Origin: a virus
DNA: 33,275 bases
Strand: one strand, 5' to 3'
Virus record (IMG/VR): IMGVR_UViG_3300027038_000027
How positions within the stretch are numbered: the first letter of the stretch is position 1; every line of letters starts with the position of its first letter. Shown here piece after piece: positions 3,724-25,513 of this stretch. The notes under the pieces are model-generated. The model worked only from the letters and a program-made list of their open reading frames with translations. It was not told where the DNA came from and made no database searches. The translations under genes were made by a program, and so were the position numbers.

Positions 3724-6294
3724 ATGGCGAACTTGGTTGCGATTGCTACGGGAAATTTTCTCGATGCTACGACGTGGGGCGTAGTAGATGGTCCCTCTAG
3801 TGGGATTGCTGCTGGCTTTACGCTCACACTCACGGCATCGAACATAGATTCCTCAACATTCGTTCCAAGTGCAACTTCCATTATTGGAGTAGCCATCCAT
3901 CTTTACTCGCGTGCGGCTGGTTCCCCATCAAATACGATAACACTTACGCTTCGTAATTCGACCACATCAACAAACATCCAAAGTGTTACGGCCAATGTCA
4001 GTGACTTACCTGCTTGCACTGCTGGAACAGCCAGCGAAGGTGGTTGGCATTTCTTCAAGTTCGCCACGCCGCATACACCAAATGGCACAGACAGCTATGT
4101 CATAAGGTTGGTGCTCAGCGCAACTACCACAGCAGTTACCTTATGGTCTGTGGGAAATGGTAGTAACGTCGCGCGCTTTCTGGTCACTGCGACGACGCAA
4201 GTGCCTGCTGCTGGAGATGGAATGTATTTGGCGCAACAGCTTGATGGTGCGGCTAATCCAGCAACGCCATCAGGGTTCACCGTCACGATGAACCAAACGG
4301 CAGCGACCGACTATGGAACGATGGTGTCTAGTTCTGACCAGTCGGAAAATGTGATGAGTGTGTCAAAATCATGCACACTCGCGTTTGGGTCAGCAGCTTC
4401 AACGAATTATACGCTCCGCCTCTCTGGGAATATGGCGGTGTTTAGTGGCGGCACATTGACCATCGGCACAGTTGCTACTCCAATCCCTCGGACCAGCACG
4501 GCCACACTGGAATTCGATATGACTGCTGTCAATAGCATGTGGGGTCTCCAGTGTTTGAACGGCAGCACGGTCACCATGCAGGGACTCTCGCGGACATCTG
4601 GAAAGAATGTCTTTTGGGCATTGTTGACTGCGAATCTTGCGGCTGCTGGAGTGGCTGCCACTATTGATACCGACACTGGGTGGCTGAACGGTGATGCGGT
4701 TGGTTTTGCTCCAACTACTCGCACTCCAACTCAAAGCGATGAGGTGACGTTAAACGCAGATGCAACATCGACTGGTCTCGCATGGACTGGCGGTGTAACG
4801 AATGTTCATGCTGGATCAGTGACCGAACCAATGCAGGCTGAAGTGGTGCTCTTAACACGAAATGTGCGAGTGCGATCAACAAATGCCTCAAATGGCCTTT
4901 GCTGTCGAGCCGACGCAACGGCGACTCTGGATATTGATTGGGTAGATTTTCGCTATCTGGCGAGCGAGTTTGGACGGTCAGGATGGACAATCAACACTGG
5001 AACCGGTGGCTCAGCTAGCTTTGAATATTGTGTGTTTCGAGATTCACGACAACTCTGGGTCTTCACTATTATTGGCCCAGCGGGTACTGGCACTGTGATT
5101 ATCCAACATTGTGTTGGTTTTAAAGGATCTCAAGGATTCTTAAATATTCCTAATTTAGCGACGAACTCTAATCACATTTACAATGATTTAATCGCCATCA
5201 ATTATGTTGGTGCTGGTGGTGGTATTTTCGTTATTTCACATTTTGAAGCATCTGCTTACTCCAATTGGCGTGTGGCCGGAGGTGGTAGTACAAATGGTAT
5301 CCAGTTTAATAATGGCGTAGCAACTAATTTTGCTGGAAAAGCTACGTGGGGTCCATTTGTTGTGCATAGCGGCGGTGGTCTTGGTTTAGCACTCGTCAAT
5401 AGTGCTCCTTGTTCTAATGTACATATAGCCGATGTGCTCGCGTGGCGAAATACAACAGCAGGTGTGACTTTTTCTGGTTCATGGGTTCAAGTGCATTGGG
5501 ATCGTGTACGCGCATGGGGCAATGGCACTACAAATTTTGAATTTTCTAGCTCCTCACTCTCCTTGAATTGTGTGGGCTGTGTCTTTGATGAATTGGAGTT
5601 AGCTGGCGATACGGCCTTTAGCACTACTACCGGCATTGGGTTTTCAACTCAATTCCTCACACTTGAATTCTTTGTGAAGAAAGGAAATTTTGGAACTTCT
5701 AGCGGCGTTAAGACAACTCATGCTACTCAAGATATAAATGTCACATCCCCATTAGCGAGTGTGCGGGCATACATCAACAATTGCTTGTTCACCGCTGGCA
5801 CATTGTTCAATGCCACCAATCTCTATGGCGGATTTGGATCACGATGGCATTTCTCGCGCTTCAATCGGACCGCTGGCGATTTCCGCACTTACACACCGCA
5901 AGGCATTGCTCGGCGTGAAGTCACAACCACAGATGCAGGGGCTGGCTTAAAACTTACCCCATTGAGTGCTCTCGTCAAGCTGACGTCGAGTGCCCAAACA
6001 CCAGGAAGAGGGTTTCTTGTTCCGGTCGATAGCGGCCAAGCCGTCACTGTAACAGTGAAAGTTCGAAAGGATTCCAGTTATAATGGGAATGCTCCTCGAC
6101 TTGTCATGCTTGGTTCTAGTGGTGTGGTTAGCGACGTGGATGTGGTGGGCGACACCCTAAGTGTAGGTGTCGATACCTGGGAAACACTGACCTACACGAC
6201 TCCAACCACAACCGATGCTGGAGTCTTGGAGTTCATCGTGGATTGTGATGGCACCGCTGGTAATGTGTTTGTCGATACGTGGACGGCTGCCTAA
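3724..6294 (+). CDS. tail fiber/tailspike-like protein (Thr/Ser/Asn/Gly-rich, beta-solenoid-like repeats)
   Basis: 856 aa in the tail module, with repeated short N..G/V.V-type segments typical of beta-helix spikes. No catalytic motif was recognised. Confidence 0.5.
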   Translation: MANLVAIATGNFLDATTWGVVDGPSSGIAAGFTLTLTASNIDSSTFVPSATSIIGVAIHLYSRAAGSPSNTITLTLRNSTTSTNIQSVTANVSDLPACTAGTASEGGWHFFKFATPHTPNGTDSYVIRLVLSATTTAVTLWSVGNGSNVARFLVTATTQVPAAGDGMYLAQQLDGAANPATPSGFTVTMNQTAATDYGTMVSSSDQSENVMSVSKSCTLAFGSAASTNYTLRLSGNMAVFSGGTLTIGTVATPIPRTSTATLEFDMTAVNSMWGLQCLNGSTVTMQGLSRTSGKNVFWALLTANLAAAGVAATIDTDTGWLNGDAVGFAPTTRTPTQSDEVTLNADATSTGLAWTGGVTNVHAGSVTEPMQAEVVLLTRNVRVRSTNASNGLCCRADATATLDIDWVDFRYLASEFGRSGWTINTGTGGSASFEYCVFRDSRQLWVFTIIGPAGTGTVIIQHCVGFKGSQGFLNIPNLATNSNHIYNDLIAINYVGAGGGIFVISHFEASAYSNWRVAGGGSTNGIQFNNGVATNFAGKATWGPFVVHSGGGLGLALVNSAPCSNVHIADVLAWRNTTAGVTFSGSWVQVHWDRVRAWGNGTTNFEFSSSSLSLNCVGCVFDELELAGDTAFSTTTGIGFSTQFLTLEFFVKKGNFGTSSGVKTTHATQDINVTSPLASVRAYINNCLFTAGTLFNATNLYGGFGSRWHFSRFNRTAGDFRTYTPQGIARREVTTTDAGAGLKLTPLSALVKLTSSAQTPGRGFLVPVDSGQAVTVTVKVRKDSSYNGNAPRLVMLGSSGVVSDVDVVGDTLSVGVDTWETLTYTTPTTTDAGVLEFIVDCDGTAGNVFVDTWTAA

Positions 6295-9200
6295 ATGCCG
6301 CTAACACCGACTGATGGCTCTGGCACTTATTGGGCTGATGGGCTCCCGATTCTCATTGTTCGCAGAGCTACTGACAGCTCGAAACTAGTTGGCATATGGC
6401 TCGACGGATTACCATTCCTCGTCAACGATGAGTCGAGTGGAAGCACTGGCACGATCACGTTTGACGCGCCTGTTATTGGTGCCGCTGGAGCAGTAGCTAT
6501 TGCGGATATCACGGCAATTGGAGCCGTTGAAATCCTCGGTCCAGATATTATTGCAACGAGTTCCACGAGTATTATTGGTGGAAGCTCCAATGAAATTCCC
6601 GCTCTGGTTGTGTCTGCCACAGGTGCTGCGTGGAACGCACTGGGTACGGCGGCAATCCTTATTCCAAAATTTGCTTCGTCCGGTCTTGGCTCTACGCTTC
6701 CAGCTAGTAGTGTTCAAATTACTAAACCTGCCGTGTCTGCGGCTGGTGTTGTTGGCGCACCTGCAAACGTCACGTTCGGAGTACCACTCATTGAAGGGTC
6801 ACTTGGTGTTATTGGCCCCTCAACTGTTGAAATCGAAATCGCTCTGATTGAAGCGGTTGGTGAAATCTTTGACCCACCGGCTATCGCATTTGATGCTCCG
6901 CTCATAGAAGCGGTTGGCGAAGTTGACGCGTCACGTGGTGAACTGTTTAGCACGAGTGAGTTCAACGCAGTCGGGCAAGAAGGGCATTGGCCGGAATCTG
7001 CCACATTGCGTGCGATCGTCGAAGATGATGCCTGGGGTGGAACTTTAACATACGAGTGGTCGCAAGTATCCGGACCAGTAACCGCCACGATTGTCTCACC
7101 AACGAGCCCAAAGACGGAAGTCTTCTTTGAAGAAATCGCTGGGGTCTACATTTTCCAACTGCAAGTATCCCGTGAAGATGGTCTCGTGGGATCGGCGCTT
7201 ATGCGCGTGCGTATCTACACCAATGCCGTGCCAGAATCGGCGATTCTTACCGAAGATCCTGGCATTGTCACCCTCGAAGTGAACACAGTACTTCGTGCGG
7301 CTCAGATTGGTTCAACACGCATTTCCGATGGCATTGACCAAGTTAGTCGGTGCATGTTCACGCTCTATGATGGCGCGACACCGGATGTGGCGTTGATGAA
7401 CATCGGTGATGACATGGTGCTCAGTCGTTATGGCGAGCGGCTATTTGGTGGTGTGTGCCTTTCCTATTCTGTGACGGATAAAGAGGGCTATCCGTTTTAC
7501 AACGTGTCGGTGATCGGCTACGCATGGCATTTTCTACGCACGATCATCACCAAAACCTACACCAATTGGCCGTTGATGTCGATTGTCGCAGATCTACTCT
7601 CACAGTCCGTGGGCGGTATTACCATCGCTGATAACACGTCACTGTCAACACCAGATGCGCCAACACCACCAGCTACGCCGCAAAAAACGTTTGCCGAAGT
7701 GTTAGCGGACCTTCAAGCGGCGCATGTGTCCAACGCAGTGGTCGCACTTTATGGTGCGCGGATCGGACACAACGACGCAGTAGCACTTCAAGCGATGACG
7801 TCTGTGCCGGAGACCCAAGAGACACTCGGTAACGTGATTGGGCATGGCGATTTACGCGCACTCATCGGAATACCAGTGATTGGCGGTCCGGTGGCAGTGA
7901 CCGGGATCAGCATTGAATTTATCGATAAGAATATTGCTGAATGCTTAACGGAACTGACGAAATACGCGCGTGGCCTGCATTGGAAGGTGGACGCGTATAA
8001 AAAATTGCATTTCACGTCGTTAGAAATTGACCTCGATCCCGCACCGATCACAGTGACGCATCCGACGGTCAAGGATCTGTCCGTAACGCACACGATGGGC
8101 CAGAGTGCAAATCGGATGAAGATTTACTACACTGAGCCTTCACCGACTGAAGCCAATGGCGATAAAGTAGAGCAAGGCTCAGTGATCGGACCGATTGCGA
8201 AAGGCGCCACCAAAATCCAAGTGTCAAGTCTCGCTGGATTTAGTCCGACCGGTGGTATGACGACGATTAATGGACAAAAAGTGTCGTGGTCTGGCACGGC
8301 AGTTGTTCGTGCTGCTTCGGTGTATGACCGCGTGACATTTCTTTTAACACTTACACACGCGGTCGAAGGCGGTGAACTCGGTCAGGCACTTGCCGAAAGA
8401 CCGTCTTCTGATGGTGGTCGTGGGGTAACACCACCCGATGATGAACATCCTACAACGCATGGCCCAGGGGGTCCTTATAATCCACGCGGGTATTGGCTAT
8501 CGTTAAATACACCTGATGGTGAAACACCATTGATGCAGTACTTCGATAACGGTGCGTATATGCGCGAAGGTAATCTCTATCCAGTCAGTACGACGCACGG
8601 CATGGAGTATTGGTCAATTCATGAGCGGTCGATTGAAGTCACGGTGCTTGGTGTGAAGTATCAAGACGTGGTGCCGGATGATTTGGAAGCGCCTGCTCCG
8701 CGCACGGATCGTTGCACGCCCACCGCTGAGTCCACACCAGAAGATCGGCAAGCAGCCGCGTGGTCACGGGTGACAAGTATCAACGTATATCGTGATGGCA
8801 GACCGGTACTGATACCGGAAATGGCCATGAATCCTGCTGGAGCGTGGTTTCCAACAGGAGCCACGGTGCTAGCCGAATCGGAAAAATCCAAACCAGGTGA
8901 TGAAGATAAAACCATTTATCTCGTTGGTAGTTTACCGGCGCGTGGTGGCAAGTTTGTGGATAGTCAGCCTAAATGGGATCTAGGGCCTGTGGCCGAACCG
9001 CCATATCTGTATAAAGAACCGCGTAAATGTCCAGATGGCAGCAATCCGTGGGATCCGCCAAACACTTTTTTCTTGACTGGTGTGAAAACGCATCTACCAA
9101 AAGGGACGAGAGTTCCAACTGGTTTGGTAGTGAGTAGCGGCACGATGGTCGATGGCATCGTGACATCTGAGGAGGCCATTGTCATTGGCTTAGCGGTGGC

Positions 9201-9612
9201 TGTGACTACGGTCAGTCCGGACGTGAGTAAAACGTTCGTGATTGTTAATGATCTGGCGGCGCAACACGCGCTTGCGCTCCGGCTTTCGACGTCAGGTGGG
9301 GCCACGGATGCTGGTGTAATTGAGGCTGCGTTTGATGCTGGCACGAAAAGTCGTGACGATGCGACGGCGATTGGCGAAGAGTTTCTTCGTAATGCGCGGG
9401 TGATTGATACGACTTTGACCTGCACCATACAAGACGCGCGTGCGCAACCTGGACAAATACTCGATATGGACATGCCTGTGCCGTATGGCAAAGTAAGTCT
9501 CAAAATCCAGCAAATGGATATTAGTGGTTTTGAGCTAGGTGTTCGTCACGATCACAACATTACAGCGGCCACCGAGTTGGTGAGGATGGAAGACCTCTTG
9601 AAAGGAAGATAA
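6295..9612 (+). CDS. large tail fiber / host-specificity-like protein with a PKD-like Ig domain
   Basis: 1105 aa, with the ATG immediately after the upstream TAA. TYEWSQVSGPVTATIVSPTSPKTEVFFEEIAGVYIFQLQVSREDG fits a PKD-like domain. Internal approximately 20-aa repeats PLIEAVGE / ALIEAVGEI lie near 6780-6920. Confidence 0.5.
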   Translation: MPLTPTDGSGTYWADGLPILIVRRATDSSKLVGIWLDGLPFLVNDESSGSTGTITFDAPVIGAAGAVAIADITAIGAVEILGPDIIATSSTSIIGGSSNEIPALVVSATGAAWNALGTAAILIPKFASSGLGSTLPASSVQITKPAVSAAGVVGAPANVTFGVPLIEGSLGVIGPSTVEIEIALIEAVGEIFDPPAIAFDAPLIEAVGEVDASRGELFSTSEFNAVGQEGHWPESATLRAIVEDDAWGGTLTYEWSQVSGPVTATIVSPTSPKTEVFFEEIAGVYIFQLQVSREDGLVGSALMRVRIYTNAVPESAILTEDPGIVTLEVNTVLRAAQIGSTRISDGIDQVSRCMFTLYDGATPDVALMNIGDDMVLSRYGERLFGGVCLSYSVTDKEGYPFYNVSVIGYAWHFLRTIITKTYTNWPLMSIVADLLSQSVGGITIADNTSLSTPDAPTPPATPQKTFAEVLADLQAAHVSNAVVALYGARIGHNDAVALQAMTSVPETQETLGNVIGHGDLRALIGIPVIGGPVAVTGISIEFIDKNIAECLTELTKYARGLHWKVDAYKKLHFTSLEIDLDPAPITVTHPTVKDLSVTHTMGQSANRMKIYYTEPSPTEANGDKVEQGSVIGPIAKGATKIQVSSLAGFSPTGGMTTINGQKVSWSGTAVVRAASVYDRVTFLLTLTHAVEGGELGQALAERPSSDGGRGVTPPDDEHPTTHGPGGPYNPRGYWLSLNTPDGETPLMQYFDNGAYMREGNLYPVSTTHGMEYWSIHERSIEVTVLGVKYQDVVPDDLEAPAPRTDRCTPTAESTPEDRQAAAWSRVTSINVYRDGRPVLIPEMAMNPAGAWFPTGATVLAESEKSKPGDEDKTIYLVGSLPARGGKFVDSQPKWDLGPVAEPPYLYKEPRKCPDGSNPWDPPNTFFLTGVKTHLPKGTRVPTGLVVSSGTMVDGIVTSEEAIVIGLAVAVTTVSPDVSKTFVIVNDLAAQHALALRLSTSGGATDAGVIEAAFDAGTKSRDDATAIGEEFLRNARVIDTTLTCTIQDARAQPGQILDMDMPVPYGKVSLKIQQMDISGFELGVRHDHNITAATELVRMEDLLKGR

Positions 9613-9931: not shown

Positions 9932-10912
9932 ATGCTACGAACTAATCGTCGTCATGGAGACATGACCGCTCGAAAAGTCAGACGTCCGGCATCACATCGA
10001 ACGCGTGGTGGTGGTGGTGCAGGGCTTCCTGTGGATTTTTCTGGTGGGCCAACGGTCGATCCAACCGAGAATGTCAAAGATCTTTCTGAAGCACTAAGCC
10101 AACGCCAAGACGATTTGCGTGAGAGCAACAACAAATATCTTGACGCGCGGCTGGATGGCATGGAGAACATGGCGATTCTCCGGTCATCCCACAACAGCGA
10201 GATCATGGCGTTGCGGGCGGAGTTCTACAAAGAGATCCGCCACATGGAGTCGGACCGGGTCGACAAGATTCGATCGGTCGATGTGGCCAACGCGGCGGCG
10301 ACGGCGGCGCAGCTCCTCTCAGCCGTGACGACGCTGGCGACGACGGCGCAGGCGACTGCTGAAACACTGCGCAACCAAGTGGCCGCAACGGCGGCGGCCG
10401 TGGCGAGCCAGACGGAGCGCGTGGTGAATCCGATCATCGAACGGTTGGCGCTCTTGGAGAAGTCGAGCAACTTCGGGCAGGGGCGCGCCGAACTCGCGAA
10501 TCCGGCGCTGTCGGAGGCCGTGATCGAGATGCGCAAACTGGCGAGTGGTATCTATGAGCGCCGGGGGCACGATGCGGTCGCGGATCCGGCGCTGACGGCC
10601 ACGCTGGCGAGTCTGGCGTCTGGACAACAGGCGATGGCGGTGGCGATCGGCGGCTTGAAGACGACCGATGCGACGGCGAGTGGACGACAGCAAGGAGTTG
10701 GTGACAGTCGCCAAATGTTGACATGGTTTCTTGGAATTGTGATAGCTCTGATAGGGTTATACACATTTACACAACGACCAAATGCTGAGTTAACAGAATT
10801 GCGTAATGAATTACGAGCACGTTCCAATCCTACACCGTCACAGATTATTTACACTCCAGCACCACCTGGAACACAATTACCAACAGCGCCACCAGCGCAA
10901 GTACCGAGATAA
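9932..10912 (+). CDS. Ala-rich coiled-coil protein with C-terminal TM anchor, hypothetical
   Basis: Basic N-terminus, a GC-rich Ala/Thr-rich central helical region, then the TM segment MLTWFLGIVIALIGLYTF near the C-terminus followed by a Pro-rich tail. Confidence 0.45.
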   Translation: MLRTNRRHGDMTARKVRRPASHRTRGGGGAGLPVDFSGGPTVDPTENVKDLSEALSQRQDDLRESNNKYLDARLDGMENMAILRSSHNSEIMALRAEFYKEIRHMESDRVDKIRSVDVANAAATAAQLLSAVTTLATTAQATAETLRNQVAATAAAVASQTERVVNPIIERLALLEKSSNFGQGRAELANPALSEAVIEMRKLASGIYERRGHDAVADPALTATLASLASGQQAMAVAIGGLKTTDATASGRQQGVGDSRQMLTWFLGIVIALIGLYTFTQRPNAELTELRNELRARSNPTPSQIIYTPAPPGTQLPTAPPAQVPR

Positions 10913-11605: not shown

Positions 11606-11998
11606 ATGCTATTCCTTCTTTTAACTTTGGTGCTTAACAAAGATCTAACACCAGGTATGACACGATCACTAACTGTAGAAACTGTGTGTTCAACGAAATG
11701 GGGATTAGATCGTCGTTTTGTCACTATCGCAATGAAACGGCATGTAGCTGCAGCTTATGGTGTGCCTTGGATAGATCGTATTTGTTGTGAATTTGATCAT
11801 CTTATTCCACGATCATTGGGTGGAGCTGATAATATTCTAAATCTGTGGCCTCAGCCTTGGCCTGAAGCAAAACAAAAAGATCATCTTGAAATCGTACTAG
11901 GGCAATTGGTTTGTGCTAAGAGACTATCTCTGAAAGAAGCACAGCATATGATTGTAAAAGATTGGCATAGTGCGTATCTAAAATATGTAAAACCATGA
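11606..11998 (+). CDS. HNH endonuclease
   Basis: CCEFDHLIPRSLGGADNILNLWPQ is an HNH core (DH...GG...N). ATG 11657 (MTRSL...) is a possible alternative start. Confidence 0.6.
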   Translation: MLFLLLTLVLNKDLTPGMTRSLTVETVCSTKWGLDRRFVTIAMKRHVAAAYGVPWIDRICCEFDHLIPRSLGGADNILNLWPQPWPEAKQKDHLEIVLGQLVCAKRLSLKEAQHMIVKDWHSAYLKYVKP

Positions 11999-13371
11999 AT
12001 ATTCCTATACTTGGATCATTTACATTTCCAGCTCCGTATAATACACGTGGGATTCGTCTTACAAATCGGAGTAATGCTCCAAATGGGTGTGCTCCACGAC
12101 ATTATTCGTATTATTCTGTTGTAAACAACCATCAAAATCAAGATCATCTCTTTGTTGTTATTGGACGAAATAGTGCTCCACCTCTTTTCATAAAAGTACA
12201 TAAAGAAAGTGGCCAAATTATTGAACAATGGTCACCAGAATGGGCAAGAGGAGAAGCTGAAGGTTGGTATTTTAGTGATAAGAAACCTCGTGGTCTTTAT
12301 CTAGTGATGGATTCTCGATTAATGTGCTATGACGTAGTCTCCAAAGAAATGGAAACCATTTTCTCGCTTGATCCTAGATATGGAGCATCGATCTGGCAAG
12401 CTCATTCGAGTGCAGACGATAAAGTTCATTCAGCCACAGTGCGTGATACAGCTTATCAGGATGCGGGTTTTGTTGTGTATCGTCAAGATCAACAGTATCC
12501 ATTTGGACTTCGTAATGGCTATGATGAATGCCAAATTGATAAAAGCGGCCGATATCTTGTTGTTAAAGCGGGTCTTGAACCGCCTGGCGGTGATAATATT
12601 ATCATTGATCTTGATACTGGCGATGAGTATACTATTCTTGATCGTGACGGCGCTGTTGGTCATTCAGATTGTGGCAATTGCATTTTGATTGGTGAGGATG
12701 ATTCTTCCGACCGATGGCAAATGGTGCTATGGGATCTTAGAGCTCCATCGAGTTCTCACCAAAAATTGCTTAGAGGTGGCTCTACGTGGGGCAATGGAAT
12801 GGGTCATAATGCCGTACGTGGAAATCGTGTCCTTGTTAGCAATGAAAATGGTCTCATTATTGTTTCGACTGATGGCTCACAAAAGGAGACTCCTGTTGCA
12901 CCAAGTTTAATGTGTCCACCAACATCGCCTCTTAATCCGTATGATTGGCAAGTGAGAGCTAGCTGGGACCCAATAGCAGAATATGCTTGTTGGTTGGCTA
13001 ATTGTGACGGCAGTCATCGTCTTGATGCATTTCTTGTCCAGACAACCATCTCCTCACCACAAATCCTTGTCGTAAATCCACCAAAACCAGGAGGCTCTAT
13101 GCAATCACTAGCGATTTCCACTGATGGATCATTTAAAGAAGTGAAATTGAAACATGACAGTGGATATGAAGCAGTTGGTGTGCCCGGTATGTTTGATGAT
13201 CGGCCTGCATATCTTATACCATTATCTGACTCATTAATAGATGGACATGGGGCAGAACTGACATTAGTGTGGGATGACGGAATAACACTAGTGCAACATG
13301 GATTTCTAAATATCAAGAGTAATCCACCAAGATTTTCTCCAAATATTTTCACGAAACCAACAGGTTTTTAG
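11995..13371 (+). CDS. hypothetical protein, possible beta-propeller fold (glycan-binding/depolymerase candidate)
   Basis: 458 aa with repeated DG/GxxxxD-containing strand-like segments. It ends in a T5 run at a TAG stop, immediately before an open frame leading into the next gene. Confidence 0.4.
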   Translation: MNIPILGSFTFPAPYNTRGIRLTNRSNAPNGCAPRHYSYYSVVNNHQNQDHLFVVIGRNSAPPLFIKVHKESGQIIEQWSPEWARGEAEGWYFSDKKPRGLYLVMDSRLMCYDVVSKEMETIFSLDPRYGASIWQAHSSADDKVHSATVRDTAYQDAGFVVYRQDQQYPFGLRNGYDECQIDKSGRYLVVKAGLEPPGGDNIIIDLDTGDEYTILDRDGAVGHSDCGNCILIGEDDSSDRWQMVLWDLRAPSSSHQKLLRGGSTWGNGMGHNAVRGNRVLVSNENGLIIVSTDGSQKETPVAPSLMCPPTSPLNPYDWQVRASWDPIAEYACWLANCDGSHRLDAFLVQTTISSPQILVVNPPKPGGSMQSLAISTDGSFKEVKLKHDSGYEAVGVPGMFDDRPAYLIPLSDSLIDGHGAELTLVWDDGITLVQHGFLNIKSNPPRFSPNIFTKPTGF

Positions 13372-13457: not shown

Positions 13458-14588
13458 ATGTGGGCTCTTCGTGGTGCGAAATACGAGCCAGAACGAGTTG
13501 AAGCACAGTGGGCTTTTCTCCAAAAACATCGATGGAACTATTATCGAGTGTTTGGAGATGTTGCGTGGGCGCCAGAGTTGGAGACAAATGGTGATTGGCC
13601 AGATTTTCAAACTCTTCTCGCTTGGATGGTGGATACTGGTTATGACAAATATGGCCAAAGATGCCAATTGACTGTTAGTGGGGGTTCAAAACGAAATCTT
13701 CTTCGAATAACAGATCAAGTTCTTGAAGTGATCAAAGGTCGTGAACATAAATTCATGTATCTGGAACCATCCAATGAAGGAAATGTCAGTAAAGATGTAG
13801 TCATCCAGATGGTTAAGAAACTTATGACTTCTGGTTTACTCGTTGCTCCTGGCTTTGGAAATGATTATGGCGGCATCATGAAAGAACTGATGCTAGCTCA
13901 TATTGGCAATATGGTTTCTCCCCATTTAGCTCGAACTGCGAGCGATTTTGATTGGCGATTCGTTCGTCAAACATGGGATGTAAGAGACTATAAAGTTCCA
14001 ACATCACAGGGAGAACCCAAAGGACCACTTTCGAGTGTGTCGTGGTGTAGTGATCCATTACGACTTGCAATGGCACGAGCTGTTGGGATCTTAAATGGTG
14101 CTGGCAGTTATTGTCTGCATAACGGTGCTGGTGTGTATGGCGTGGAAAAATCATTTGCAGGAGGAGTTCGTCCGCCAAATATTTGGGAGACACCAGATAT
14201 AGATAATATCATGACAGCAATTCGTGGTATTGATACATTAATGCCAATTGGTGTAGAAGATTGGGTTCGTGCCAACGATGCGTGGACTGTTCCTGCTCAT
14301 CCACTTCGTTCACAACATTTTTGGGAGGGTAAGTCTGGTTATGGCGTAAACAAGAATTACTCAGCCAGTTTCGGAGCCTCATTTGTGACGGCTCCGTGTG
14401 GCGTCATGAGCCAAGAAGGCAAAGACCCATATGTTACAGCACGAAATGCTTGTCGCGTCGTGGTTTCTGATCCATTGAATCCTGGCACACCGATTGAAAT
14501 CAAAGACTTGGGCGCAGGAGAGGAGTTGGTACTGAAAGGTACGCCGAACGCGCAAACAGCGTACATAATCAATGGAATCAGATTGTAA
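13458..14588 (+). CDS. putative TIM-barrel glycoside-hydrolase-like protein (clan GH-A-like NE motif)
   Basis: YLEPSNEGN resembles the NEP acid/base motif. The frame is open upstream from 13323 and encodes GIVRADGRGFKDNTGRFFPLGATL, which looks like a GH N-terminus, but there is no canonical start before ATG 13458. Confidence 0.35.
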   Translation: MWALRGAKYEPERVEAQWAFLQKHRWNYYRVFGDVAWAPELETNGDWPDFQTLLAWMVDTGYDKYGQRCQLTVSGGSKRNLLRITDQVLEVIKGREHKFMYLEPSNEGNVSKDVVIQMVKKLMTSGLLVAPGFGNDYGGIMKELMLAHIGNMVSPHLARTASDFDWRFVRQTWDVRDYKVPTSQGEPKGPLSSVSWCSDPLRLAMARAVGILNGAGSYCLHNGAGVYGVEKSFAGGVRPPNIWETPDIDNIMTAIRGIDTLMPIGVEDWVRANDAWTVPAHPLRSQHFWEGKSGYGVNKNYSASFGASFVTAPCGVMSQEGKDPYVTARNACRVVVSDPLNPGTPIEIKDLGAGEELVLKGTPNAQTAYIINGIRL

Positions 14589-17842: not shown

Positions 17843-18100
17843 CTATGGTTTTGCTGATGAATCGTATTCTATGGTTCCAGGATGAGAACGTTGATACATC
17901 TGAAGGTCATTCGATGCTTGCGATTCTGACATACCAAATTTGCGTATTAGGTGTTCTCGATTAATAAATCCGAACACGCGCAGTGCCTCGGCAATCCATT
18001 CCATACGATGTTTCTGATACCAATTCCCAGCAACTTTAGACATCGGGTTCAAATCCATGTTTCTTTTGCAAATCTGGAACATGCCAACATGGCTTGCCAT
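17843..18100 (-). CDS. small HTH-domain protein
   Basis: FGFINREHLIRKFGMSESQASNDLQMY is HTH-like. ATG 18043 is an alternative start lying 4 nt after the stop of the upstream primase-polymerase gene. Confidence 0.35.
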   Translation of the reverse strand: MASHVGMFQICKRNMDLNPMSKVAGNWYQKHRMEWIAEALRVFGFINREHLIRKFGMSESQASNDLQMYQRSHPGTIEYDSSAKP

Positions 18101-18794
18101 TCCTCATCCGGTATTTCCAACCCGGACAAGAACACGAACCTTTGCCTGTTTCACGATGAACTTTCGTGGTGTAGGCGTTCTTCACACCTTTGCTACTATC
18201 GTACAACTCGATAAAGAAATCTTCCGGATTCGGTTTGTCTTTCTTTGGGCGTTTCTCGTTAAAAAGAACACCATCGAGTCGTTTGTGGAGATATGCTAGC
18301 TGCTCGGAACGCTCTTCAATAGTGTTAATAGTCCCAAGCAATTTTCCGGTGACAGTGAAATAACGTCCTTCTGAGTAGATTTCTACGAAGCCAAGTTTGC
18401 GCCATCCGTCGGGAAGTTTGGCCTTCACGAGAATATGAACACCAGCTCCTGATGGACTCGCTTCAGTGTATGATGAAATCTCATCAATGATTCTTTGCGC
18501 TTCTTGTTTCTTAGCGCCAGTAATGGGATCGCGGCATTTGTCAAGATCGATGCCACAAAATCCTTCGCCGAGAACGAATCCGATTCCATGTGCATGGCCA
18601 TCACGAAATGTTGAAAGTGCTTGACTGAAATGAGCCCAAGTGGCAGGATTAGTGCTGCTGGCCATCCTCTCAGGATTTTCTGCTTGGATGGGAATCTTGG
18701 TAGGATTGTCGCCACGAGTATCGAGGCGCCAACAAACCCAACGAGGCATTTCACGTAGCTCGCGTGGGATGTTGAGTATCTCAAGATCGTTCAT
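18036..18794 (-). CDS. primase-polymerase (archaeo-eukaryotic primase family, Prim-Pol N-terminal domain) fused to a C-terminal SWIM zinc finger
   Basis: AEP motifs GIDLDKC (DxD), SPSGAGVHILV (SGxGxH) and EIYSEGRYFTVTG. The C-terminus SCSCPGWKYRMRNGKPCWHV matches the CxCx(n)CxH pattern. Confidence 0.65.
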   Translation of the reverse strand: MNDLEILNIPRELREMPRWVCWRLDTRGDNPTKIPIQAENPERMASSTNPATWAHFSQALSTFRDGHAHGIGFVLGEGFCGIDLDKCRDPITGAKKQEAQRIIDEISSYTEASPSGAGVHILVKAKLPDGWRKLGFVEIYSEGRYFTVTGKLLGTINTIEERSEQLAYLHKRLDGVLFNEKRPKKDKPNPEDFFIELYDSSKGVKNAYTTKVHRETGKGSCSCPGWKYRMRNGKPCWHVPDLQKKHGFEPDV

Positions 18795-19024: not shown

Positions 19025-19221
19025 TATTTGATCTTCACCCAGGAATCACCAATGAGCATCACAATTGGTTCAATTTCACCCTTTGGTGTCATTGGAACCC
19101 ACCAAGGATTGTGCATTCCATAACAAGGAGTTCCTACGAAATGCCGATCTTCTCGCTGGACAAGACATCGATGATGAGGTTCTGGCCAACCTAATTGGTC
19201 AGTAATTTTGGTGAATCTCAC
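19024..19221 (-). CDS. hypothetical protein
   Basis: Short ORF packed between neighbouring genes. Confidence 0.3.
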   Translation of the reverse strand: MRFTKITDQLGWPEPHHRCLVQREDRHFVGTPCYGMHNPWWVPMTPKGEIEPIVMLIGDSWVKIK

Positions 19222-20291
19222 AACACTTCACCAATGATATGGTCTGCCATGGGATGCCTGTATCTACCCGTATTCGTTTTCTGCTGATAGTTAATTCGGA
19301 TTTCTTTGCCAATGAATCGAGTTGATTCAGTGGCAAACACACGACGCCACTCATCGTTGAGCGTCTTGACTTGGACTTCAACACCAAATTCATCGACGCA
19401 TGAGATCTTTGAATGTGGACCTAACAGACCAGCCACAAATCCGACGATCTTACAGATAACGAATTGTTCTTTCTTGATCTTGATCCATGAACGAGAACGG
19501 TGATCTTCCTCATAGAGAGCTTTAAGATCCTTGATAATCGCTCCCTCACCACCAGCATCCCAAATCCTCTGAAGAGCTAATTCAGACACTTCGAATTGAT
19601 CGGCGAGACGAATAGCACCAGGCGAAATCAGTGACGCGCCTTCTTCGAGCAAATCTCGACGAGCGGCGGTCGTTTCACCAAGCGCAGAATTCGGACCAAC
19701 ACGAAGCATATCGAAAAGAATTAGTTCAGATTTGTGAAGAAGATCAATGGACGTAACATCGGTTGACGTGCCACCAGGAATACACAATTCTCCATCGTAG
19801 ATTCCAGGCGCAAGATGAGCAGCAACTTCACGGATATGATTACCAAGAATGCGCACATTCCCCGCCCGCGACCACGCGGTGATTTCTGCTCCTACTTCGA
19901 GGATGATACGATGTCCATCATATTTGACTTCGAGGATGTGATCAGCGTCGACGTAGTCGTCGAGAACCCATCCCTCTTTGAGACCAGATGCCAACATCGG
20001 ACGAACAGGAATTTCTGGAGAAGCACCAAGCAGGGAAGGCTGAGCAGGAGCGCCACTACCACCAACGATTTTGAGATTTGGCGTTGATGAAAAGCGACCA
20101 ACAATTGGAGGAAGAGCTATTACGCCAGGACCACCACGGACTAATTCGTCGCCAGCCGCTTTGATGTGCCAGCATTTATCGGGAGTACGAAATCCTCGAC
20201 ATGTACAGACGAGACGTCCATCATCGTGAAGAGTGACGACGTGTGGTTTTCCATTCGGATTGGATTTGGACGGGTAACTCCACGTTCTCAT
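19218..20291 (-). CDS. lig: ATP-dependent DNA ligase with N-terminal SWIM zinc finger
   Basis: Motif I EVKYDGHRI (KxDGxR), DGEL, EGAIIKD and WIKIKK (motif VI). The N-terminus LVCTCRGFRTPDKCWH matches the SWIM CxCx(n)CxH pattern. Confidence 0.7.
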   Translation of the reverse strand: MRTWSYPSKSNPNGKPHVVTLHDDGRLVCTCRGFRTPDKCWHIKAAGDELVRGGPGVIALPPIVGRFSSTPNLKIVGGSGAPAQPSLLGASPEIPVRPMLASGLKEGWVLDDYVDADHILEVKYDGHRIILEVGAEITAWSRAGNVRILGNHIREVAAHLAPGIYDGELCIPGGTSTDVTSIDLLHKSELILFDMLRVGPNSALGETTAARRDLLEEGASLISPGAIRLADQFEVSELALQRIWDAGGEGAIIKDLKALYEEDHRSRSWIKIKKEQFVICKIVGFVAGLLGPHSKISCVDEFGVEVQVKTLNDEWRRVFATESTRFIGKEIRINYQQKTNTGRYRHPMADHIIGEVL

Positions 20292-21997: not shown

Positions 21998-22288
21998 TTA
22001 AAATGGTATGTCATCATCTGGGATAGGTGCCGCAGTTTGTTCTACAACTTGTTGTTCTATGGCTTCTTGTTGTTTTCCACAAGCATCTATAAATCCATCA
22101 CCAATATTCTGAAAATTCATGGCGTCTTCTTTTGAAATCCAGACAACGATTTCTACATATCCGCCATCTGCCATTGGTTGTACATGTGCTGTATGTGGAA
22201 CCTTCACACCATATCGCTGTGCAGCCACTGTCCGATAGTTATCGCGAAGTTTGTGTAATTCAGCTCGTACCTTTTCTCGTTCATTCAT
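21998..22288 (-). CDS. small helical protein ending in the SSB C-terminal tip motif (…PIPDDDIPF)
   Basis: The last 6 residues, DDDIPF, are identical to the C-terminal hexapeptide of E. coli-type SSB. The rest of the 96 aa has no OB-fold-like sequence. Confidence 0.5.
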   Translation of the reverse strand: MNEREKVRAELHKLRDNYRTVAAQRYGVKVPHTAHVQPMADGGYVEIVVWISKEDAMNFQNIGDGFIDACGKQQEAIEQQVVEQTAAPIPDDDIPF

Positions 22289-22451
22289 GATCTAGCTCAT
22301 TGATCTTTACATCGATGTTTGTCTCAATAATCCTGTATGGAATGTGTAGTGCTAGAAATTGATTTGTTTGAAGAGCTTTTCGGATGTACTCAACTGTTAA
22401 CGATTTGCCACCACCTTGTGGTCCACTCACAATTATCTTTATCACGATCAT
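22281..22451 (-). CDS. 56-aa ORF with an N-terminal Walker A (IIVSGPQGGGKS); probable truncated kinase/ATPase remnant
   Basis: Its ATG 22451 forms an ATGA overlap with the upstream stop. The P-loop is seen directly; the ORF is too short for an NTPase and has no Walker B. Confidence 0.3.
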   Translation of the reverse strand: MIVIKIIVSGPQGGGKSLTVEYIRKALQTNQFLALHIPYRIIETNIDVKINELDHE

Positions 22452-23937: not shown

Positions 23938-24909
23938 CTACGCCGCGAACTGCGTCGCGAGCAAGAGTGCCTTTTGTTTCAGCTTCGCGTTTTTGCCAAA
24001 CACAGCACTCTTGTTAGCCGAACGGATACTCTTGGTGTTGTGCGCCTCTGCGGGGCGGACATGGTCTACGTATTCAGTAATCGCATTGAAAGCTGTCCAA
24101 GATGTACCCGGAGCAAATTCGGTCCCCTTCCCCGATTCAGACAGTTCGAGGATCTTCTCGAAACGACGCGCGACGACTGGGTTTTCCATTTCCAAATCGT
24201 CTTCATCCTCGATACCAAGCACTTCAGCGATGTAGGCACGAACTTCGTCGTGATCCATTCGCTTCGCTGCCAGTTTTGCGAACGTTTCGCCGGATTGTTT
24301 CAGCGACGCTACCAGATTGGTTACCAAATCGGTAACCATTTTCATCTGATTTGCGACACCGGAAACGTGCCGCAGTTCGATGATTTCCTTGCTTCTGAGC
24401 GCCAACGCGATGGTATTGGCGCATACAGCACGCACTGGTGTCGGTCGAGCGGTGAAGCGGGTCTTGCCATTGTGACCGGTCATGACAAGGAAGTAGCCAT
24501 CGACGTGATCGCCGGCCACCACTTCGATTCGTTCGGGGAGCTTCGCAAGCATCCAACATTTGTCCCCAGTCCCAAGCGCTCCGGCTGTTTCAATCGTAAC
24601 ACCGAACTGTTCGCAGGCAGGTTGAAGAACACCAAATGCCTCATGATTCTGAAGCACGTGGTATTTGTCGCCGACGGTGTGAAGGATTTTGTGATCGACG
24701 TCGCGAACAGTGGCTTTTCGACGACTCACTTTGGTTCCGTCAGCAAGGAACAAGTCCTCGATCGAGACCAACCAGTCAAGGTGAGCCGCTTTGAGAGCAG
24801 CCGGAACATCCGGATTACCCTCCATTTTGGTGCCAAGCGCGTGCCAAGGAGTCTCTCCCTGATACGCCATTGTAGCTTGACCCATGAGTTCCGAGATCTC
24901 GTGGCTCAT
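23938..24909 (-). CDS. DUF932 / phage-plasmid-like protein (TIGR03299-like)
   Basis: MGQATMAYQGETPWHALGTKM... is typical of this family. ATG 24909 has a GGAGAAAGG Shine-Dalgarno sequence; the listed ORF start 24951 is a TTG. Confidence 0.55.
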   Translation of the reverse strand: MSHEISELMGQATMAYQGETPWHALGTKMEGNPDVPAALKAAHLDWLVSIEDLFLADGTKVSRRKATVRDVDHKILHTVGDKYHVLQNHEAFGVLQPACEQFGVTIETAGALGTGDKCWMLAKLPERIEVVAGDHVDGYFLVMTGHNGKTRFTARPTPVRAVCANTIALALRSKEIIELRHVSGVANQMKMVTDLVTNLVASLKQSGETFAKLAAKRMDHDEVRAYIAEVLGIEDEDDLEMENPVVARRFEKILELSESGKGTEFAPGTSWTAFNAITEYVDHVRPAEAHNTKSIRSANKSAVFGKNAKLKQKALLLATQFAA

Positions 24910-25022
24910 ATCTAACCTTTCTCCGTATGCTTCCTCCCGCAACAAGGACAAACGGAATATCCTCGCGGAATGCGCGCTACACAGATTTGACAGACAAGAA
25001 GTAAGCGCCTATTCATAACTAA

Positions 25023-25084: not shown

Positions 25085-25513
25085 CTATCTTGCTTTCCAG
25101 TTCTCCCAATACGTGCGAATCATCCAATCTTGCACCGCTTCTTCATTTGGTTCTGCAGGAATTGGAGATGTATTGATGAGATCTTTGAGTGATCGTTCTA
25201 GATTTCCTGCCATTGTGAGTACAGCATCAAGTTCTATGCGCCCATAGCGCACATCCATGAGAAATTCTCGTGTACCTTCAACCATTGGTAGGACCAGACG
25301 ACCAGTCTGCATTAGCTCTACACCTTGAAATCCTAAACGAAGCATGTGCATTGCATACTTAGTGTCGTATCCATGCTTTGCCTCAAGCTCAGGACGGTGT
25401 ACTTTCTTTTGTCCTCGCTCGCCTAATAATCTTTGTCTCTGTGCTTCCATGTAACCAAGAAATCTTTTTCCAGCATAGCGACTGATAACGCGGTTGTTGG
25501 TTCTACAGCACAC
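25085..25513 (-). pseudogene. C-terminal half of a Pol-beta-superfamily nucleotidyltransferase (KYAMHMLRLGFQG region); the N-terminal half is on the opposite strand
   Basis: HGYDTKYAMHMLRLGFQGVELMQTGRLVLP matches the C-terminal helical domain of YcgL/RlaP-like nucleotidyltransferases (family name recalled, not searched). No N-terminal nucleotidyltransferase core lies upstream on this strand. Confidence 0.45.

Follow-up and report, generated by a model that had tools for sequence, protein, structure and literature searches.

A small phage protein without an OB fold carries an exact copy of the SSB C-terminal tip and may serve as a modular adapter

The stretch of DNA analysed here, referred to below as the window, comprises 33,275 nucleotides of the IMG/VR virus record IMGVR_UViG_3300027038_000027. 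A short gene, co-oriented with the long minus-strand operon that surrounds it, encodes a protein ending in the hexapeptide DDDIPF. The gene, its parts and the ORF immediately upstream are as follows.

21998-22288, minus strand: target gene, 96 codons, ATG start, TAA stop at 21998-22000
22121-22288, minus strand: core domain, residues 1-56
22028-22120, minus strand: acidic linker, residues 57-87, net charge -4.5
22001-22027, minus strand: SSB-type C-terminal tip PIPDDDIPF, residues 88-96
22001-22018, minus strand: strict hexapeptide DDDIPF, residues 91-96
22281-22451, minus strand: upstream ORF of 56 aa with a Walker-A-like GPQGGGKS motif

Translation of the ORF gives a protein of 96 residues, MNEREKVRAELHKLRDNYRTVAAQRYGVKVPHTAHVQPMADGGYVEIVVWISKEDAMNFQNIGDGFIDACGKQQEAIEQQVVEQTAAPIPDDDIPF, whose C-terminal end, ...TAAPIPDDDIPF, is directly followed by the stop codon. 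The initial annotation, which had placed a 96-aa product ending in DDDIPF at 21998-22288, is thereby borne out, with exact coordinates. The whole protein has a pI of 4.9, and its core segment a pI of 8.1. The ATG lies within the 3' end of the upstream 56-aa ORF, with an overlap of 8 nt (22281-22288), which suggests that translation of the target is coupled to that of its neighbour. This neighbour shows weak, sub-threshold matches to Pfam AAA-type and PHROG thymidylate-kinase models, and is far below the length of a complete NTPase. A promoter and terminator scan near the target returned no signal beyond shuffled expectation. Given its position on the operon strand, its overlapping start and the existence of homologues elsewhere, the target looks like a real gene.

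Elsewhere in the window the following features were recognised.

18036-18794, minus strand: primase-polymerase with a C-terminal SWIM finger
19218-20291, minus strand: ATP-dependent DNA ligase with an N-terminal SWIM zinc finger
23938-24951, minus strand: DUF932 protein
25085-25513, minus strand: RlaP-like nucleotidyltransferase, C-terminal half (profile positions 120-245)
25433-25819, plus strand: ORF resembling the N-terminal half of RlaP, containing GSTAHGLAMPGTDDRDEMGV, Pfam RlaP in the contig gene table
26385-27215, minus strand: Ku homologue
27381-29858, minus strand: 825-aa protein with a major-vault-protein shoulder, a Vault_3 repeat and an SPFH/Band-7 domain
3724-6294, 6295-9612, 9932-10912, 11995-13371 and 13458-14588, plus strand: large ORFs of 326-1105 aa, no PHROG match

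The plus-strand block encodes tail-type proteins, among them TIG and PKD Ig-like domains, a Gp80-like fibre protein and a helical tape-measure-like ORF, and the greater part of it is without a PHROG match; just one of the large ORFs (6295-9612) lies above the Pfam gathering score, with an Ig-like K319L-like PKD domain. Judged by these searches the virion module has diverged far from those of known phages, and the window contains no recognisable capsid, portal or terminase gene. The contig is phage-like and probably partial. No SSB, PolA or clamp was found in the 33-kb window; since the contig is partial, their absence from it is no proof that the phage lacks them, and the phage may encode its own SSB and polymerase outside the window.

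The Ku homologue, the ATP-dependent ligase and the primase-polymerase, all on one early-gene strand, look like an end-joining module, which recalls the Ku-encoding mycobacteriophages Omega and Corndog. The 825-aa vault-like protein (shoulder match E=3.7e-26, no PHROG match) is unusual for a phage. The RlaP-like gene is seemingly split, its halves diverging from one point; this could reflect an in-place inversion or an assembly artefact, and no convincing flanking inverted repeats were found at the split.

Identical protein and DNA are present on six metagenome contigs from one sediment/groundwater project (PRJEB22302), one of them 33.9 kb long, and these contigs are 100% identical across their overlap. 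Isolated phage genomes contain no match to the window or to the protein (megablast, tblastn), and the DUF932 gene of the window has no close relative in 185,579 species genomes. The initial annotation had also read the motif as a hint of a host whose SSB ends in DDDIPF. DDDIPF or DDDLPF tips are conserved over most bacterial phyla, and because they are so widespread the motif points only weakly to such a host.

The terminal hexapeptide was then considered against the background of the window. A tblastn search of the window with E. coli SSB as query gave the hexapeptide as its sole match (22018-22001). A six-frame scan of the window, in stop-to-stop frames of at least 30 codons, found no second ORF with an acidic run followed by an [ILVMF]P[FYW] ending. 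From the window's own amino-acid frequencies, a DDDIPF ending has a probability of 1.75e-8 per ORF, and about 2.2e-6 such ORFs are expected by chance among its 127 six-frame ORFs of 50 aa or more. On these figures the tip is non-random.

The structure of the target was predicted with AlphaFold2 using a 28-sequence family alignment. The pLDDT is 94-97 over residues 1-50 and 57-74 over residues 61-96. The predicted core consists of a long helix (residues 3-26), a two-stranded β-hairpin (about residues 36-45) and a short helix (residues 53-60). Along the linker (residues 57-87) the pLDDT is again 57-74, with a low-confidence helix at residues 65-84; its composition is rich in Glu, Gln and Val, not in Gly, Pro and Gln, and the matching region of the second long-form protein of the family, P0010, is coil. 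On these models the linker is probably flexible. The structure prediction of P0010 has the same core fold as the target, followed by coil, and a structured domain leading through a low-confidence linker to the tip is thus the layout common to both long-form proteins.

Searches of the target against Pfam, PHROGs and NCBIfam gave no match above noise. The OB-fold ssDNA-binding domain of SSB (PF00436, phrog_44) is absent, and the SSB-type acidic ending ...DDD[IL]PF is present at residues 91-96. Since it lacks the OB fold that defines SSBs, the protein falls outside the SSB family, and it would act as the C-terminal half of an SSB does, without SSB membership. That the protein is not an SSB had already been claimed from its sequence, and the claim holds: the predicted structure contains no OB fold and the family searches gave no SSB match. 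The accompanying description of the rest of the protein as helical and not OB-like stands in its second part; the first gives way to a predicted core in which a β-hairpin lies between a long and a short helix.

The core defines a family of about 30 small proteins without prior annotation. Queried with the target sequence alone, 5.8 billion protein clusters yielded no protein but the target itself, while HMMER, run exhaustively on 1.84 billion representatives, detected 11 small homologues of residues 6-57, a set that a profile search of the same representatives enlarged to about 27. HMMER E-values of the family range from 4e-7 to 7e-4 in single-sequence mode and reach 5e-26 with the profile. 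Member lengths range from 58 to 120 aa, and the common motif, YR..A ... DGAFVEV.VW[VI]P, is represented in the target by Y18, R19 and A22 and by D41, G42, two variable positions, V45, E46 and, further on, W50. In the family alignment D41, G42, V45 and E46 are invariant, and R19, A22 and W50 nearly so. The target shows both traits by which the family is recognised, the conserved motif and a helix-plus-β-hairpin core of about 55 residues. No family annotation is present for any of the members, and the core family is absent from 185,579 species genomes.

Homology extends to soil-metagenome proteins of about 55 aa with the pattern 'EGEIEVD..A.VS..DGAYVEAWVWVP' (hhalign probability 97.6%, E=4e-12, against the target core). 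The DGAYVEAWVWVP branch, in its fuller pattern 'F/YR..A..LY..EGEIEVD..A.VS..DGAYVEAWVWVP', was observed at loci L139, L141, L147, L157, L160, L172 and L177, and one locus of the branch is carried by a soil-metagenome contig of 164.6 kb. Neither Pfam nor NCBIfam holds a model for this branch.

The pI of the family is mostly acidic to neutral, about 5-6, which argues against general DNA binding and for protein-protein contacts. Those members for which genomic context is available all lie within phage replication/recombination modules, with SNF2 helicase, SMC-like ATPase, PolA, β clamp, UvrD, Mgm101 or Pam3_Gp34-like genes as neighbours. The target conforms to this setting, being placed among the primase-polymerase, ligase, Ku and DUF932 genes. 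However, five of the eight family loci belong to one related phage group, and the neighbours therefore give no specific partner for the core. Indeed, the SNF2, SMC-like and Pam3_Gp34 neighbours recur essentially inside that group and are missing from the window and from loci L011, L135 and L136; no neighbour gene is universally conserved in the family.

The distribution of the tail within the family indicates that it is an add-on. Of the 28 aligned members, 26 are tail-less, and these are distant, at most 53% identical in the core; most members stop right after the hairpin, and a few have Cys-rich extensions. Long forms ending in DDDIPF are confined to the target and P0010 (97 aa), the latter from a 586-bp contig without useful context. 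Between the two proteins 24 of 56 core positions are identical (41-43%), against 2 of 34 in the linker and all six in the tip. A neighbour-joining tree of the cores places them as sisters, with the weak resolution that 51 columns afford. An intact tip beside a linker with two identities in 34 argues for selection on the tip, and since all other members are tail-less, the tip would have been added onto an independently functioning domain. The simplest history would be that linker and tip were acquired once and that only the tip has since been under purifying selection. The initial annotation had regarded loss of the terminal motif in close homologues as speaking against its reading; the motif is absent from 26 of 28 members, all of them distant, and kept in full in P0010. 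By this comparison the tip is not family-defining, and is strictly kept where the long form exists.

Further tail-bearing relatives were found neither in IMG/VR, by a [PQ]DDDIPF-seeded search, nor in JGI metagenome contigs, with the pattern DG[GA]YVE..[VI]W; the searches of 5.8 billion clusters and 1.84 billion representatives gave none beyond P0010. A recent capture of an SSB 3' end found no support, since the linker resembles none of the C-terminal regions in a set of 121 DDDIPF-ending viral ORFs. As a separate observation, the linker motif GFIDACGKQQEAIEQ (residues 57-87) resembles a unit, G..G...MDACARQPEAI, present in five copies in P0004. This otherwise unrelated protein of 336 aa has a lipoprotein-like signal, and phmmer matches it to the target over five stretches (E=1.3e-6).

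To place the tip in a wider context, IMG/VR was scanned for DDDIPF followed by a TAA stop, and the first 120 loci (L013-L132, TAA stops only) were taken. At least 107 distinct full-length products ending in DDDIPF were reconstructed from these IMG/VR loci. Among the matches listed, 32 of the 107 products matched Pfam SSB and 34 matched phrog_44; many further products belong to other PHROGs with an SSB or gp2.5-like annotation. Carriers that are not SSBs, again among the matches listed, include SF2 helicases, an AEP primase, a DNA-polymerase processivity factor and Pam3_Gp34-like proteins, as well as several PHROGs of unknown function (862, 2300, 1811 and 13350). The non-SSB carriers discussed here are located as follows.

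L036:4839-6524, minus strand, and L060:942-2771, plus strand: SF2 helicases ending in DDDIPF
L125:4519-6078, plus strand: AEP primase ending in DDDIPF
L059:6511-7686, plus strand: clamp-like protein ending in DDDIPF
L021:5371-6162, minus strand: Pam3_Gp34-like protein ending in DDDIPF
L027:1279-1497, minus strand; L058:1958-2176, plus strand; L088:4580-4798, plus strand: phrog_1811 carriers
L017:2622-2846, minus strand; L033:2983-3207, minus strand; L118:351-578, minus strand: phrog_1811 carriers

The phrog_1811 protein is helical, 73-76 aa long, and found in pelagiphages and cyanophages with the motif KYEAEI...GIGEHPQF; at least six such proteins with DDDIPF occur within the 120 viral loci, and its homologues in 163 phage records are annotated as hypothetical throughout. 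When the target core was compared with phrog_1811, hhalign aligned the six tail residues only, at a probability of 0.85%. The tail of the target is less singular than the initial annotation assumed, and the survey shows the DDDIPF tip to be a portable module, which phage DNA-metabolism proteins have acquired repeatedly. The searchable literature discusses the tip for SSBs and for the OB-fold phage protein Bas52_0087; no description of a non-OB protein with an SSB tip or of an SSB-Ct mimic, and no general survey of the tip, was found there.

We tentatively favour the reading that the target is a modular adapter, which would tether SSB-tip-binding enzymes to the partner of its core. The folded core would bind a component of the phage replication/recombination apparatus, probably as an oligomer contacting a protein partner, and the probably flexible acidic linker of about 30 residues would present the exact copy of the SSB tip. 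The tip would dock in the SSB-Ct pockets of SSB-interacting proteins, for which host Pol III chi, PriA, DnaG, RecQ, RecJ, ExoI and RecO, or phage equivalents, are candidates. The docked enzyme would thereby be tethered to the core-bound component, and the outcome would be an SSB-like recruitment hub without ssDNA binding. The SSB tip docks through its terminal Phe, its carboxylate and its acidic residues into pockets of many genome-maintenance enzymes (PMC5872125, PMC10164576), and DDDIPF is named as the SSB-Ct interaction motif (PMC5872125). From this known docking, together with the PriB graft and the T7 tails described below, we infer that the tip of the target binds SSB-interacting proteins.

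Several features argue for the adapter. The tip is exact, non-random and retained in P0010, and both long forms, in which a low-confidence linker joins the structured domain to the tip, parallel the N-terminal domain, disordered linker and tip of SSB. The core is conserved independently of the tail, among replication/recombination genes, which suggests that the tip joined a domain that already had a partner, and the family is acidic and not DNA-binding in character. Moreover, viral tip carriers beyond SSBs include replisome enzymes, for which tethering is the natural reading, and published work shows that the SSB C-terminal domain is portable. Lastly, the phages of the tail-less relatives have their own PolA and clamp, whereas the window has only the primase-polymerase, ligase and Ku; the lack of PolA and clamp fits, weakly, a need for coupling to host machinery, being a single case from a partial genome.

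The initial annotation had proposed a decoy or a recruiter, and both roles are plausible. A decoy is the main rival of the adapter, though we consider it somewhat less likely. Freely exposed tips, possibly multivalent should the core oligomerise, would occupy the SSB-Ct pockets of ExoI, RecJ, RecQ, PriA and RecG and so uncouple host SSB, and the phage could gain protected DNA ends or intermediates, or interference with defences wired through SSB and ExoI. The target is a small acidic protein (pI 4.9) without a recognisable DNA-binding domain, so ssDNA binding would not gate its tip in the way it does for SSB; as a small soluble protein whose tip is permanently exposed, it would be an equally good competitor, and the gene shares its early-gene strand with Ku and the ATP-dependent ligase, a DNA-end module. 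Competition with ExoI (SbcB) as the DRT10 defence is activated has moreover been proposed for an SSB-like phage protein that ends in FDDDIPF (bioRxiv 10.64898/2026.04.29.721553). Yet a decoy has no need of a conserved partner-binding core, and the core is old, conserved and usually tail-less. Most other phage tip carriers are replisome components, for which recruitment is simpler, and stoichiometric competition with abundant host SSB would require high expression.

In a stronger form of this idea, which we consider rather unlikely, the target would be a dedicated decoy, a small oligomeric scaffold whose several tips shut down or re-route the host SSB interactome (ExoI, RecJ, RecQ, PriA, RecG, chi). 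If true, the protein would protect DNA ends handled by Ku and ligase or blunt SSB/ExoI-gated defences. It would then represent a new class of host-takeover or anti-defence protein acting by short-linear-motif mimicry, and the other non-SSB DDDIPF carriers would mark a general, undescribed phage strategy.

It is unlikely that the tip serves a contact internal to the phage, as in the T7 model, where it would bind a phage polymerase, primase-polymerase, helicase or annealing protein and owe its identity with the host tip to shared pocket ancestry or a common docking site. The precedent is that T7 gp4 and gp2.5 contact T7 DNA polymerase through acidic C-terminal tails (PMC8472574; Ghosh et al. 2009 via PMC9917605), and the presence of the tip on several different replisome proteins in viral contigs is what an internal docking tag would give. 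However, the tip matches the bacterial consensus letter for letter, beyond a merely acidic and aromatic end, and no phage candidate for SSB-Ct binding was recognised in the window, where many ORFs are without annotation.

Very improbable is a functionless fossil, a tail gained by illegitimate recombination with an ssb 3' end: the family generally functions without a tail and just two carriers are known, but the hexapeptide is intact in both, despite a core identity of 41-43% and linkers that cannot be aligned, neutral sequence would be expected to decay as the linker has, and no trace of SSB-linker sequence is found upstream of the tip. A divergent or truncated SSB, with a cryptic OB fold or as an ssb remnant after loss of the OB domain, has in its favour the tip itself and a weak formal resemblance to SSB's domain-linker-tip layout, and is effectively refuted by the absence of any SSB family match and by the predicted non-OB structure.

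In bacterial genome maintenance the SSB C-terminal tip serves as the central docking peptide, and it is pursued as an antibiotic target. At least 17 E. coli enzymes bind it (PMC10018359). A natural carrier that is not an SSB would reveal phages tapping or jamming the SSB hub with six residues, and the target is a potential genetic tool against SSB-partner interactions in vivo. Carriers of the tip range from helicases, a primase and a clamp to small proteins of at least two unrelated families. This range suggests a broad phenomenon, and the tip could predict phage proteins that plug into the host replisome or that might trigger SSB/ExoI-linked defences. This broader pattern in viral contigs may be a more valuable lead than the target itself.

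Compared with known systems, the target is closest in its ending to E. coli SSB (...DFDDDIPF), with which its last six residues are identical. As in SSB, the tip ends an acidic segment, probably flexible in the target, that follows a folded N-terminal domain, and from this identity of sequence and presentation the same SSB-interacting pockets are expected to fit it. Unlike SSB, the target has no OB fold in its predicted structure and no sign of ssDNA binding; its linker is about 31 residues long and rich in Glu and Gln, whereas that of SSB is long and rich in Gly, Gln and Pro, and its folded domain comes from an unrelated small-protein family.

An SSB-style acidic C-terminal tail on a phage protein that is not an SSB is also found in T7 gp4. 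The T7 helicase, like the T7 SSB, uses acidic C-terminal tails to hold the polymerase (PMC8472574), and the terminal Phe of gp2.5 is the subject of Ghosh et al. 2009, as cited in PMC9917605. The target has no sequence or fold relationship with gp4 or gp2.5, and PHROG and Pfam searches found in it no homology to gp2.5 (phrog_112) or to the gp4 helicase/primase; what they have in common is limited to the principle of an acidic tail with a terminal Phe. Furthermore, the T7 tails do not copy the host tip and have the phage's own polymerase as their target, and gp4 is a large enzyme, unlike the 96-aa target, which has no catalytic domain.

Bas52_0087 (...FDDDIPF), another phage protein that bears the tip of host SSB, has been proposed either to engage host ExoI (SbcB) or to interfere with it (bioRxiv 10.64898/2026.04.29.721553); unlike the target, it is predicted to be SSB-like, with two OB folds. 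The phrog_1811 proteins are an independent case of a small non-OB phage protein with the exact tip, but they have almost no linker and an unrelated core. An exact copy of the host tip borne by a very small scaffold that is neither an enzyme nor an OB fold appears to be undescribed, while the use of SSB-style acidic tails by phage proteins, non-SSBs included, is a known principle. The PriB-SSBc chimera, finally, also bears the SSB C-terminal module on another scaffold, and PriB carrying the grafted SSB C-terminal domain stimulates PriA (PMC8509808). Unlike the target, this artificial protein is built on an OB-fold ssDNA binder.
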